This document shows positions 5,564 to 63,565 of a DNA stretch of 64,000 nucleotides, one piece after another. Position 1 is the first letter of the stretch; every line of letters begins with the position of its first letter. The notes under the pieces were generated by a model that saw only the letters and a program-made list of their open reading frames with translations, ran no database searches and was not told the DNA's origin. The translations under genes and the position numbers were made by a program. This DNA comes from Octopus vulgaris (Eukaryota): contig OX597819.1 of NCBI GenBank assembly GCA_951406725.2, forward strand, positions 100,874,001 to 100,938,000. The letters run 5' to 3'.

Positions 5564-5601
5564 TCTTTAACGTTTCGAGCCTACGCTCTTCAACAGAAAG
5601 A
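5564..5601 (-). ncRNA. Minimal type I hammerhead ribozyme motif (core CUGUUGA)
   Basis: UCUUU-CUGUUGA-A-GAGC(GUAG)GCUC-GAA-ACGU-U-AAAGA: stem I UCUUU/AAAGA, stem II GAGC/GCUC, palindromic stem III. Confidence 0.7.
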
Positions 5602-6444
5602 TACACAGAGAGAAAAAAAACACAGAAAGAAGGAGAGAAAAAAATGCGTGCAGTAACTAACGAATCAACATGGCGATCTGATTCCGGCCAGAGGTCAAAG
5701 ATCAAACATGAGACGCGAGAGCGAAATAAGGGGAGATAATAGGGTTGATAATAGGGTTGAATGACCAGCTATTAGTGCGTAGGAGAGGTCTGGACGTGTG
5801 TATGTATAGGGTTGGTGTATGTATTAGTATGTACTAGTATGTATAAGGGTGTGTGTGTGTGTGTGTGTGTGTGTGTGTGTATGAGAGAGTATTAGTGCGT
5901 ATGATAGGTCTGGACGTGCGTATGTATGGGGTTGGTGTATGTATTAGTATGTATTAGTATGTATTAGTACGTATTAGTATGTATAAGTGTGTGTGTGTGT
6001 GTATGAGAGAGTATAAGTGCGTATGAGAGGTCTGGACGTGTGTATGTATAGGGTTGGTGTATGTATTAGTATGTATTAGTATGTATTAGTACGTATTAGT
6101 ATGTATTAGTTGGTGTATGTATTAGTATGGCACATCATATATGATGTGATGTGTAAAGTCGTGTGGTGTAGTGTGGAGAGAGGAGAAGAGGGGGAGGGGG
6201 AAGGGAGGAGAGGGGGAGGGGAGGAGGGGGAGAGGGGGAGAGAGAGTAGGGAGAGGAGGAGGGGAGGAAGGAGGAAAGAGGGAGAGGGGGAGAGAGAAGG
6301 GGCGTGAGGGAGCAGAGGGAAGGGGAAGAGGGAAGGAGGGAGGGAGAAAGAGGGAAGAAGGGAAGAGGAGTAGGGCTGAAAGGATGAAGGAATGAAGAAG
6401 TAGGGGTCGGGGGGGAAGGATAGGTGAGGAGGGGGAGAGGGGGG

Positions 6445-6780
6445 TTAGATGAGGAGGGGGGGGGGGTAGTTGAGACCAAATGGCGTATAAGAGCGAAGAG
6501 AGAAGATTAATTCCTGTTCACGGCGCAAACGGGAATCCGGATGGCCTCTGTGTAAGGACAAACCGAACACAGATAGGTGTTGCAAGGTGTGACCGGTGAA
6601 GCGGAAATGGCGTGAGACCGGTGTGTCGTTCGCAAGGTGGATGTCACGAAGGTGTTCCGCGAACCGGTCAGCCAAGCGGCGTCCTGTTTGTCCGATGTAC
6701 AAGGAATGGCAGAGAGAGCAAGAGACGCAATAGATAATATTGCTGGAGGTGCAGGTGAAGGAGTGGATGATGGGATAGGG
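6445..6780 (-). pseudogene. PLE GIY-YIG endonuclease C-terminal fragment
   Basis: [75 protein letters not shown] motifs, CxxC, conserved R, H, E and GLN. 5'-truncated at (TA)n. Confidence 0.92.
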
Positions 6781-6950
6781 TCATATACATATATATATAC
6801 GTATATATATATAAATATAAAATATATATATATATATATACGTATATATATATATATATATATATTTACATATATATACGTATATGTGTATATATATATA
6901 TATATATATATATATATATATATATATATATATATATATATATATATATA

Positions 6951-7291
6951 CATTACGGAGATGTACTTGCATAGCAAGCGACTTGATCTGAGATCGTGTG
7001 CTGGAATGAAAACAATTGCAGCGTGGAAGGTGTTTATAAGCCATTTAAGAAATACGCAAAACCGTTAGATTCACTTTAACATTTAAATTTGATTTGTCAA
7101 AATATTTTCGTCGCTTTGAGACCGCGACCTGTTCACTGACAAAGCTTCGATGCAGCACAAAGCTTTGTCAGTAAACAGGTCGCGATCTCAAAGCGACGAA
7201 AATATTTTGACAAATTAAATTTAAATGTTGAAATGAATCTAACGGTTTTGTGTGTTTCTTAAATGGCTTATAAACACCTTCCACGCTGCAA
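6951..7291. mobile_element. Fold-back pair of PLE-type termini, each with a G3-C8 hammerhead motif
   Basis: Arms of about 130 bp (7016-7146 and 7159-7291) are near-perfect reverse complements. Same family at 24970-25425. Confidence 0.85.
7093..7143 (-). ncRNA. Hammerhead ribozyme motif, G3-C8 core variant
   Basis: UUUGUCA-GUGAACA-G-GUCGC(9 nt)GCGAC-GAA-AAUAUU-U-UGACAAA: 7-bp stem I, 5-bp stem II, palindromic stem III. Confidence 0.7.
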
Positions 7292-8874
7292 GTGTGTCCT
7301 CATGGGGCTAAAAACTACAGTAGTATCCACCCTTAGGGGTTAGCCATATTGAAATGGCAAAAATACGACACGTTGTGTTACCGCTACTGTATATAACTCA
7401 CATTGATATTTATCATTATATATATATATATATATATATATATATATATATATACATACATACATACATACATACATACATACATACATACATACATACA
7501 TACATACCGATATATATAGAGATCAATAGAGAGGGAGAGAGAGAAACAGAGAGATATAGAGATAAATATATACTACAGAGGTAGCCGTATGAGTGAACAA
7601 ATGAAAGAAAGAGATACTCAGCACATTTAGTTTACGTGTATTATTTTAAAAAATAGTATGATTCGGCCCCGTTCGACTCACCGAGTGGAGACATATAGGA
7701 TCATCAGATATGTGTGTGTGTGTGTGTTTGGTATGAATGTCTGCATCGATATCGTTGTTAACCGTACCATTGAAATTGTTCGAATTAAAGTCATTAATAT
7801 CCGTTAAGTAGTCCGTTTCTTCTTTCATATATCCGGCTATATAACCGACATTTTTTTCTCCTTAATTCTTTTCCCGAGCTGCTGCGACTAATTTATTTAT
7901 ATCTATTATTTTACTTTTTCTGTCGGCAGGTTGTTTTTATCTGGCATCAATCCCTCTTTTTTGGTAGGTAAATATAATAAAATTATGTTTTAAAATGGTA
8001 AAAGCTCAGACCCGATGTCTTTACTAATAGGGATAATGTCCAAAGTGTTCCACATGGATTCCATCAAGAAAATTCTGCTAAAGAGAAGTTTTGTCTTTTT
8101 TTTTCTTCTTTTCTCTTCAGCTGTCATGGAAAAAAATTTCTTGGTGTGCAAAAAAGTACACTCGAATGAATAACAACAACAGCAACACCAAAACCATAAA
8201 GCTGGCGACGGCAATGAATATGATGATGACAACGTTGTTAATTAGATCAGGATGATGATGATGAAAATGAGATGATGTTTTATATTGGCACCACACCAGG
8301 AATGAATAATAAGAAAGAACAACCTATGGTATGGAATTTAGTAAATCATTGGTGCATTATTCTATTGACCCCGGAAAGAATGTGGGCCATATTCGAAACC
8401 TGGCGGCGCTTGGACAATAAATATATGTACTAAAATAAGGATAAATACGAATACTATCGCCACAAATATTATTTTAAAATGCTCCGTAAACGAATTAACA
8501 TGAGATGGATAAAGCTTGAAGACAAAGCATATTATGAAGGAAATATAAAAGGAACAGAAGGGATAATGAGTGAAATAATGCACGAATGAGAGGAAGAAAT
8601 AATAAAAAGAAAAGGAAAACGAGAAGGAATGAAAGAGAGTCGGTAGCAATTATAATTTTTCGCCTAACATCTGGATCTAATGGTTTTTAATGTTTATATT
8701 TTTCCTTTTATCTATATATGAGTTATATCGGCATCATTGGGGAAATAAATCTTTTACAGCTCTGTTTAGGCCTATCAGTTTTCTCAATAGAAAGCACGGC
8801 CCTGTTGCTTTTGCCCTCACCTCCCTCAGGTTCTTTCTCTGTATCTTCTTTCTCTCTCTGTCCCTCTCTCTCTC

Positions 8875-9008
8875 TATATATATATATATATATATATATA
8901 TATATATATATATATATATATATATATATATATATATATATATATATATATATATATATATATATATATATATATATATATATATATATATATATATATA
9001 TATATATA
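8875..9008. repeat. Long pure (TA)n microsatellite
   Basis: Direct reading; one of dozens of (TA)n tracts in the window. Confidence 0.95.
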
Positions 9009-61739: not shown

Positions 61740-62105
61740 GCGCAGTAGTGGTGAGATGTGACAGCAAAGAAAAGCATACATTCACTCTCTGCATGCAATT
61801 AGACTCGGAAAGTTCGTGAGGAACCCATTGACCCAATTTGCTGACTTTTCCGATAGCACACAGGTCTCAATGAATGGTTGAATGACCAAATCCAAGCTTC
61901 TCTGCTAGTTCCTCAACAGTTACGATGAGATTTTGTTCCACCAGGGTTTTCAGGATGTCCTTGTCGAGTTCTACAGATCTTTCAGGATGAGGCACGTCTT
62001 CTAGGCTGTAGTTTATGGCTCGGGATTTCTGGAACCACCATTGACACTGCCTTACGCTTATTGTCCAATCCCCATATACTGCATTAATATTTCTTGTACT
62101 TTGCA
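61740..62105 (-). mobile_element. Mariner transposase N-terminal fragment
   Basis: STRNINAVYG..CQWWFQK..SLED..TVEELAEKLGFGHSTIH, a frameshift, then IGKVSKLGQWVPHELSE. Confidence 0.88.
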
Positions 62106-62719
62106 CACATTTATATTGTTATTCTTTTATATGTTTCAGCCTTGAGGTTGTGGCCATGCTGGATCATGTGTGTGTGTGTGTGTGTGTGTGTATATCTGTC
62201 TGTCTGTCTGTATGTATATATGTATATGTATGTGTGTGAACAATAATATTTTCAACAGATGTGTTGCAAATGTATCTGATTGTTCTCAAGCTTCAATACT
62301 GTGTGTGTGTATGTGTGTGTGTGTGTGTATGTATGTATGTATATGTATTTATGTATGTATATGTATGTATGTATGTATGTGAATATGTATGTATGTGTGT
62401 GTATGTATGTGTGTGTGTATGTGTGTGTGTGTATGTATGTATGTATGTATGTATGAGTGTATGTTTACTTTATTACTAACACAAGCCACTACGGTTATTT
62501 AATGTAAAGTCTTCCTCAAATCACTCTCTCTCTCTCTCGCTATTTACTCTCTTCCAAGAACATTTTCACTCACTCTTAGCTCTTAGCTTCCCATACATTT
62601 TACTCATGTATCTATCAGCGTCATAGACAGAATACTTTCAGTTTAGTCTTCCTCAAATCACTCTGTCGCTATTTACTTTCATTTTATTCGTTGCCCACTG
62701 TGTGTGTGCGTTTGCGTGT

Positions 62720-62945
62720 GGTGTAAACCAGACTAAGAAAAGCATTTGACACACACACCAGAATGTGAGTTTTCTGTAAATTTTGCTTAATTGGAGTTTA
62801 AATTTTAAAAACTGGACCTGGCATGACGCGATGCATTCTACTCTCAAAAATGCCAGGTAAATTGTAATTGAAGAAATCCTATATTGTAGATTTGTATAAC
62901 TCCCAAAGGGAGGCAGATAAAATCTGCCTTTTATAATAAGAGATA
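62720..62945 (-). mobile_element. Helitron-like 5' end fragment
   Basis: Minus strand begins A|TCTCTTATTATAAAAGGCAGATTTTATCTGCC, a TC start followed by a hairpin; 3' CTAG end not found. Confidence 0.4.
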
Positions 62946-63027
62946 TATCTGTATATCTCTCTCTCTAAATATATATATATATATATATATATATATATAT
63001 ATATATATATATATATATATACATATA

Positions 63028-63362
63028 TTTTGTTTTTGGATTTGGTTTGCAAGATTCTTTATGCGAGTTCGTATGTTGAAGCATATTCTATTGTTTCTGG
63101 GGAAAGTCATTTTCTTTTTGTGCCTTATAATTTAAACCACTCAGCGGTAAAATTTCCTCTTGTTCTTATTTTTATTTTCCTAAAATTTTCGTTGCGTCTT
63201 GCAACTATTTCAAAAGTCAAGACTATTGAAAATATTGTCAGTAGTAAAAGGTTGCATGATGCAACGAAAATTTTAGAAAATACAAATGAGAAATAAGTGG
63301 AAATTTTACCGGTGAGTGTCTTAAATTATAAGGCACAAAAAGAAAATGACTATCCCCAGACA
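63028..63362. mobile_element. Fold-back pair of PLE-type termini with degenerate HHR motifs
   Basis: 63096-63218 mirrors about 63240-63360; each arm has GTTGC..GCAAC-GAAAATTTTAG; left end abuts (TA)n. Confidence 0.8.
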
Positions 63363-63384
63363 TAAAAGAACAAGCCACTACACA

Positions 63385-63565
63385 CATTTTTCCCTTCTTT
63401 TTTCTCTCCTTGTCTCTCTCCTTGTTTTCTGTGTCCCTTTCTGTAGAAGAGCGTAGGCTCGAAACGTAAAAGACTTTTTCTACTCCTAAGCGTTATACTA
63501 ATACATCTGTTGTTTTGTACACCACCCGTCTTCGACTTTTTTTGTTTTTTTGCGTAAACACTCCC
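63385..63565 (+). mobile_element. PLE terminus with HHR (63437-63472, core CUGUAGA), followed by (TA)n
   Basis: cttt-CTGTAGA-a-GAGC(gtag)GCTC-GAAACGTA-aaag; tail homologous to but diverged from 60937-61034. Confidence 0.8.

Follow-up and report, generated by a model that had tools for sequence, protein, structure and literature searches.

We investigated hammerhead ribozyme motifs of Penelope-like elements (PLEs) in a stretch of 64,000 nucleotides of Octopus vulgaris DNA (contig OX597819.1, positions 100,874,001 to 100,938,000, forward strand). This stretch is called the window here and is part of a 2.8-Gb, microsatellite-rich genome. All four Watson-Crick pairs between core positions 3 and 8 of the hammerhead are family states: C3-G8, G3-C8, A3-U8, and U3-A8. 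A preliminary description of the window had counted at least three of these pairs and probably all four, and each of the four was found. Motifs are numbered by the position of N3 of the core.

Four pairs at the 3-8 position as family states

Genome-wide patterns were run for the families of the window. The pattern for the G-C family, in which positions 3 and 8 were free, gave 6,225 genome matches, and G3-C8 was present in 95 of the 100 listed. The equivalent A-U pattern gave 397 matches, with A3-U8 in 98 of the 100 listed. For the U-A family with the palindrome AAUU, the anchor excluded the core and gave 4,479 matches. U3 and A8 were both present in 27 of 30 fetched copies, and 23 of the 30 read exactly UUGAAAA, which showed that the core reconstructed in the preliminary description was correct. 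The ACGU pattern gave 24,838 matches, with C3-G8 in 95 of the 100 listed (hand count). The reversed control of every genome-wide pattern gave 0 matches.

In addition, a descriptor with positions 3, 6, 7, and 8 free was run on 963,551 bases (the window and fetched loci). It gave 149 non-redundant hits, compared with 2 in five shuffled replicates (0.4 per shuffle). Positions 3 and 8 were paired in 144 of the 149 hits and formed a Watson-Crick pair in 15 of 16 hit clusters, the exception being one copy; this sample and the family list, which is incomplete, are enriched for the families of the window by design. The core N3-U-G-A-N-N8-A, with GAAA and UH around stems I and II, was found in the G-C, A-U, U-A, and ACCCGGGU families, the last being named after its palindrome. 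Perfect palindromes of 4-8 nt were present in intact copies of all six window families. Palindromy was demanded by the descriptors but not by the G-C and A-U anchors, whose copies nonetheless showed palindromes. As had been predicted, a search for CUGANGA would overlook most of the motifs counted here. Three candidates were dropped: L226 (GUGUAGA), in which 3-8 is unpaired, and L091, which has G17, each from one genomic place among the fetched loci, and L229, which has weak stems.

The variants could also be copy-specific decay or chance look-alikes. Six of the 11 motifs in the window are damaged, and the older ACCCGGGU family kept C3-G8 in only 15 of 26 scored copies (30 fetched). However, the variant pair was kept in 95-98 of the 100 listed copies with those positions free, the reversed and shuffled controls were at or near zero, and copies with long frames carry the variants. 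The family counts refuted this reading, to which we give practically no credence, and the view of the preliminary description that the variants are family states was upheld.

Relaxed scans and family queries gave 11 hammerhead-like motifs from six families in the window. The motifs and the element parts linked to them are as follows.

5564..5601, minus strand: minimal type I hammerhead motif CUGUUGA (C3-G8, U6), palindrome ACGU, N3 5596, in the 3' terminal repeat of a 5'-truncated Penelope-like copy
6448..6780, minus strand: GIY-YIG endonuclease end of the element with the 5596 motif (Pfam PF01541, E 0.0026, below the cut-off)
7093..7143, minus strand: GUGAACA (G3-C8), extra G, palindrome AAUAUU, 7-bp stem I, intact, N3 7136
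7164..7214, plus strand: GUAAACA, G5 mutated, inverted partner of the 7136 motif, N3 7171
12180..12214, minus strand: AUGAAUA (A3-U8), 2-bp stem II, no extra base, palindrome ACCGGU, intact, N3 12209
12505..12737, minus strand: broken endonuclease end of the element with the 12209 motif (tblastn, 78-92% to the GIY-YIG frame of L055)
24985..25033, minus strand: GUGAACA, decayed copy of the G3-C8 family, N3 25026
25235..25285, plus strand: GUGAACA, decayed copy of the G3-C8 family, GAAA box and palindrome mutated, N3 25242
27447..27500, plus strand: CUGAAGA (C3-G8), palindrome ACCCGGGU, G10.1 mutated in this copy, older family, N3 27451
27915..27949, plus strand: CUGACGA (C3-G8), palindrome ACGU, GAAA changed to GGAA, short-element family, N3 27919
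60899..60936, plus strand: second CUGUUGA (U6) motif, absent from the earlier list, N3 60904
63180..63218, minus strand: UUGAAAU, copy of the U3-A8 family, palindrome AAUU, A9 and extra base mutated, N3 63213
63221..63276, plus strand: inverted, rearranged partner of the U3-A8 copy, with an insertion that splits the core from stem II
63437..63472, plus strand: CUGUAGA (C3-G8, U6, A7), palindrome ACGU, N3 63441

The core, GAAA box, and palindrome were intact in five of the 11 motifs (5596, 60904, 63441, 7136, and 12209), and the remaining six showed copy damage. Every motif cited in the preliminary description was present at its place, 7093 being the low end of the 7136 motif. Its statement that the palindrome and, except in a few copies, the GAAA box are kept held for intact copies; the 25242 copy has neither and the 27919 copy reads GGAA. 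The extra base after A9 was present in the ACGU, G-C, and U-A/AAUU families, and the extra purine noted at 27451 was a copy mutation of G10.1. The extra base between A9 and 10.1 was absent in the A-U, ACCCGGGU, and U-A/ACAUGU families. U6 had gone unmentioned in both motifs that bound the earlier finding (5564 and 63472). Weak window hits at 323, 26979, 35935, and 39927 were dropped, and no family query matched them.

Covariation between families

Covariation of positions 3 and 8 between families was confirmed. All 14 family representatives were paired, with four pair types (C-G in 7, U-A in 5, A-U in 1, and G-C in 1); a further U-A family with a 753-codon frame was found after their choice and is not among them. 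The covariation was reached in 0 of 500 shuffles, and slid controls were lower. Since kinship inflates such a count, trees of the reverse transcriptase (RT) and endonuclease (EN) were built. The exact permutation probability was 0.0056 for six RT-linked lineages.

In the RT tree, the G-C family, the A-U family, and two U-A families formed one clade (support 100/99) at 52-69% identity. The G-C family grouped with the U-A/ACAUGU family (81/90, weak), and the 753-codon U-A family joined the A-U family in a group with 99/99 support. The C-G families were outside the larger clade, and the U-A family with AAUU was far from all others at 19-24% identity. The four pair states require at least three double changes on this tree, or four with an ancestral C-G, to which the published consensus points. 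From the tree, U-A is likely the most parsimonious ancestor of the G-C/A-U/U-A clade and would be the hub of the swaps. C-G likely changed to U-A by two transitions, and U-A would have changed once to G-C and once to A-U.

Association with Penelope-like elements

The motifs belong to PLEs, as the preliminary description had assumed. For four of the six window families, the motif was located in the terminal repeats of elements with RT/GIY-YIG; in these families, and in three outside the window, it followed the frames on the sense strand. Two motifs of the window, 5596 and 12209, were preceded on their own strand by a GIY-YIG end (6780-6448 and 12737-12505, respectively). The first of these ends matched the terminal part of the 1181-codon RT+EN frame of L211 with 96% identity. 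The U6 motif occurred once per repeat in tandem elements, with a spacing of 4,470-4,494 nt, and the core CUGUUGA was present in every terminal repeat detected in tandem copies with long open reading frames (ORFs). Frames of this family reached 1181 codons, with RVT_1 and a weak GIY-YIG. GIY-YIG frames preceded the A-U copies at many loci, and the copy in L240 followed a frame of 635 codons. In L199, a broken RT-EN frame preceded the G-C motif. The U-A/AAUU motif was behind an EN-bearing frame (frames of 665 and 428 codons) in five of eight fetched copies, and the true ORF link for this family came from L075 and L231. A 362-codon frame beside the U-A copy L079 was rejected as the element ORF; it resembled the RT fragment L125 and matched no Penelope-like protein except by a low-complexity hit. 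The linked families that are absent from the window were U-A/ACAUGU (781 codons), U-A with an ACCGGU-based stem III (753 codons), and C-G with C4 (574 codons). The pairs at 7136/7171 and 63213/63250 were inverted, and the first is a typical inverted terminal-repeat arrangement. Flanks of (TA)n were also observed.

Several further observations were made on these elements. In the 781-codon copies (L181, L217-L219), stem I was mismatched and positions 10.1-11.1 formed a G-U pair, and an extra upstream frame of 338-386 codons was found in L181, L188, L189, and L191. The 753-codon family (L242-L246, L250, L251) was young, and its motif had one A more after GAAA or, read the other way, G at 17; its relatives L247 and L025 had a perfect 8-nt palindrome. 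L146:2084-3100 contained retrozyme-like units in tandem, about 363 nt long, that each carried a U3-A8 motif and the palindrome ACGCGU. A frame resembling cytidine/deoxycytidylate deaminase was directly behind a copy of the G-C family in L017:1572-2117 (+). Six endonuclease copies of the AAUU family were spaced 14-19 kb apart at G000:C1:206652848-206734740, a large tandem array.

Short copies of the G-C and U-A/AAUU families mostly started at an AG resembling a 3' splice site, which precedes N3 by 21 nt in the first family and by 11 nt in the second. Among the copy starts (L001-L030 and L061-L090), 20 of 30 ended 17-26 nt and 12 of 29 ended 7-13 nt upstream of N3. In the G-C family (window 25210-25242), a branch-point-like word and a pyrimidine tract preceded the AG. 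In D. virilis, the intron end was placed at helix I (Cervera and De la Pena 2014, PMC4209133).

Variants of the uridine turn

U replaced A at position 6 in 19,046 of the 24,838 ACGU-type matches, intact tandem elements included. All four letters were found at position 7 of the U6 matches, including copies with long frames. The sister type of short elements, to which the 27919 motif belongs, gave 11,144 matches, and C4 was present in 78 of the 100 listed (hand count). C4 was also found in the element of L185. The largest lineage (U6, C4) thus departs from the invariant U4 and A6 of the uridine turn, and its motifs are variants and not strict members.

The majority states of six subfamilies of the ACGU lineage were compared, with stem II belonging to the anchor. 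Positions 3, 5, 8, 9, 12-16.1, and the first three pairs of stem I were invariant, while positions 4, 6, 7, and 17, loop II, and the flanks were variable. From these invariant and variable positions, the motif is still hammerhead-shaped while the uridine turn is altered. Contigs of four coded runs covered the U6 motif; the variation at N7 known from the genome was unlisted, so they were uninformative about position 6 and about transcription. Published assays predict weak activity for changes of the U6 and C4 type (PMC3088659; PMC9901934).

These results bear on the earlier proposal that the compensatory swaps imply selection on catalysis. The covariation showed selection on a fold with the 3-8 pair, and this part stood. 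However, U6 and C4 are fixed and lower the activity of tested hammerheads, which argues against selection for fast catalysis.

The 27919 type was about 200 nt long with a sharp 5' start (window 27845-28040; L057, L067, L098, L100, L111), had at least 11,144 copies, and mostly carried C4. It aligned with the repeat of the U6 family and is possibly a non-autonomous derivative of a terminal repeat. The core CCGAAGA (C4), with a U-U opposition at 10.1-11.1 and the palindrome AGUACU, was found in L185:4806+ and L196.

Dimer model and alternative readings

Taken together with published work, our analysis makes it reasonably likely that these minimal type I hammerheads cut slowly, probably with protein assistance, as dimers of two copies on one tandem transcript. 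A read-through transcript spanning two repeats would hold two motif copies, as in the dimer model of PMC4209133. The palindromes of the two copies would pair into a stem III that the monomer cannot close, stems I would swap, and each site in the dimer would cut after N17. G8, whose 2'-OH is the general acid (PMC6155905), would act through this group while being held by pairing with N3. Selection would therefore keep the pair and not the bases. U3-A8 also occurs in nature (PMC3088659). Since the demand would be for the fold and not for speed, the weakening by U6 and C4 would be tolerated and could spread in the largest families. Dimers of such minimal motifs cleave weakly (PMC4209133), and the protein of the element itself likely helps the motif. 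The Penelope-type hammerhead of a lizard element cuts only with the protein of the element, and the C3G/G8C change rescues it partly (PMC11167929).

The folding predictions gave a mixed result. For the A3-U8 copy, the dimer of lowest predicted energy was the double hammerhead of the model; for the ACCCGGGU copy, it differed from the model by an extra hairpin in loop II. The following points weigh against slow cutting as dimers. In four of the six families tested, the dimer model was 5-13 kcal/mol above the lowest-energy fold, although this would fit the need for a helper. In the CUGUUGA copy, an alternative pairing of U4-U7 with the GAAA/palindrome segment is possible. The lizard element did not require cleavage to insert in vitro, and RNA-seq reads ending at the cut site were absent (PMC11167929). 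A natural A6C variant was slow and had low activity (PMC3088659). No contiguous same-strand ORF was found at the 28 listed matches of the 27451 (ACCCGGGU) family or at the 17 listed matches of the 27919 (short ACGU) family, the window copy being counted twice in each. The covariation has limits of its own. Four of the 14 representatives (L026, L140, L190, L197) were known from one copy each, and two deep branches of the RT tree were long and their placement was unsure. Sameness among the copies of one family reflects youth, so only comparisons between families count.

We also considered U6 as a stabilizer of an inactive hairpin. This was rejected as unspecific: a canonical CUGACGA copy forms a similar alternative pairing.

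The hammerhead fold could instead be kept as a structural signal, such as a site for binding or for loading the RT, an element used in splicing or translation, or a device for dimerization. Cutting would be vestigial, and the 3-8 pair would shape the fold. The high proportions of U6 and C4, both of which are predicted to be weak, and the dispensability of cleavage in the lizard element are in agreement with this, as is the finding that Naiad elements thrive without canonical hammerheads (PMC8557442). In addition, G occupied H17 in a few cases (3 of 65), and stem III was irregular in the young 753-codon family. However, G5, G12, A13, A14, A15.1-U16.1, and a non-G17, all of which catalysis requires, were conserved even between lineages whose proteins are about 20% identical, and the 3-8 pair is part of the active conformation. 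Related motifs do cut (PMC4209133; PMC11167929). We therefore regard a purely structural role as rather unlikely and favor slow, assisted cutting of dimers.

A bolder form of protein assistance can be put forward tentatively. Penelope-type hammerheads may be protein-completed and deliberately slow, with RT-EN supplying the uridine-turn and loop contacts and thus freeing positions 3, 4, 6, and 8. U6 and C4 would then be selected brakes. Such brakes would keep enough RNA uncut for tandem insertion, which would explain U6 and C4 in the two largest motif families, and only G5, a 3-8 pair, A9, and GAAA would be left of the "invariant" hammerhead core.

Pairing between families

The preliminary description had proposed that family-specific cores and palindromes act as a code, selected so that only copies of the same family form an active dimer. 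Nine different palindromes were present among the 14 representatives, and a full stem III together with a stem I of at least 3 bp was formed in only 3 of 182 heterologous sites, as such a code would predict. However, at each site in the dimer, one copy supplies the 5' strand of stem I, the core, stem II, and GAAA, and the strand that is cut belongs to the second copy. N3 and N8 are on the same strand of each site, and the core therefore carries no partner information. A full stem III was possible in 10 of the 182 heterologous pairings. ACGU, ACCGGU, and ACGCGU were each common to several families, some with different cores, and ACGU recurs across many families and species in the 2014 alignment (PMC4209133). 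When the palindromes were shuffled among families, a mean of 0.88 compatible pairs was expected, compared with 3 seen, so no selection for orthogonality was apparent. Two copies on one transcript yield specificity without a code. We consider the code very improbable, and the incompatibility between families looks like a by-product of divergence.

Comparison with known hammerheads

The motifs resemble the minimal hammerhead ribozymes (min-HHRs) of metazoan PLEs (PMC4209133) in many respects. Those are likewise of type I, located in the terminal repeats, and have a short palindromic stem III. They also share the extra base after A9 (here in the ACGU, G-C, and U-A/AAUU families), the G10.1-C11.1 pair, many families per genome, and solo and inverted copies, and U3-A8 covariation was described there in Schistosoma mansoni families. 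The alignment in Fig. S3 of that work, as extracted, contained only CUGANGA, two U3-A8 cores, and one U3-G8 core. G3-C8, A3-U8, U6, and C4 were absent from it, whereas each is a family state here, in copy numbers that range from hundreds to tens of thousands. Perreault et al. 2011 (PMC3088659) likewise described natural U3-A8, a low-activity A6C, and 2-bp stems II. In the available text of that work, however, these are rare single cases, with no G3-C8, A3-U8, A6U, or large retrotransposon family. The PAc hammerhead of Anolis Poseidon (Frangieh et al. 2024, PMC11167929) is likewise of the Penelope type. Its natural core is C3-G8 and its G-C state was engineered, whereas a natural G-C family is present here. 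Among the best 150 of the 332 Rfam rows for the window, there were only simple-repeat matches; no hammerhead model was among them, and no match to the canonical tertiary-stabilized hammerhead at the gathering threshold.

The minimal motif, the extra base, the palindrome, the dimer, and U3-A8 are already published (2011, 2014), and the preliminary description had not mentioned that U3-A8 was known for PLEs. G3-C8 was found in the literature searched only as an engineered mutant. Family-wide G3-C8, A3-U8, and U6 were not found in that literature, although Lunse 2017, which lies outside the comparison, may hold some. Subject to that work, what is new here is that four 3-8 pairs are fixed in related families of one genome, together with a family-wide A6U.

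For the question of what hammerheads do in PLEs, one genome gives a natural series of variants (four pairs, U6, C4). Several of the families have long open frames, and their relations can be read from the RT. This allows a direct test of whether and how much cleavage is selected. In addition, surveys that call elements "hammerhead-less" may need a relaxed core, as CUGANGA overlooks most of the motifs.

Other features of the window

A general repeat search of the window was dominated by microsatellites. Two further Penelope-like pieces were found, with no hammerhead motif found behind either: an RT-thumb/EN piece at 26110-26794 (-), 74-85% like the U6 family, and a GIY-YIG piece at 44493-45014 (+). 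A Mariner/Mos1-type helix-turn-helix fragment (PF17906) was located at 61870-62118 (-).

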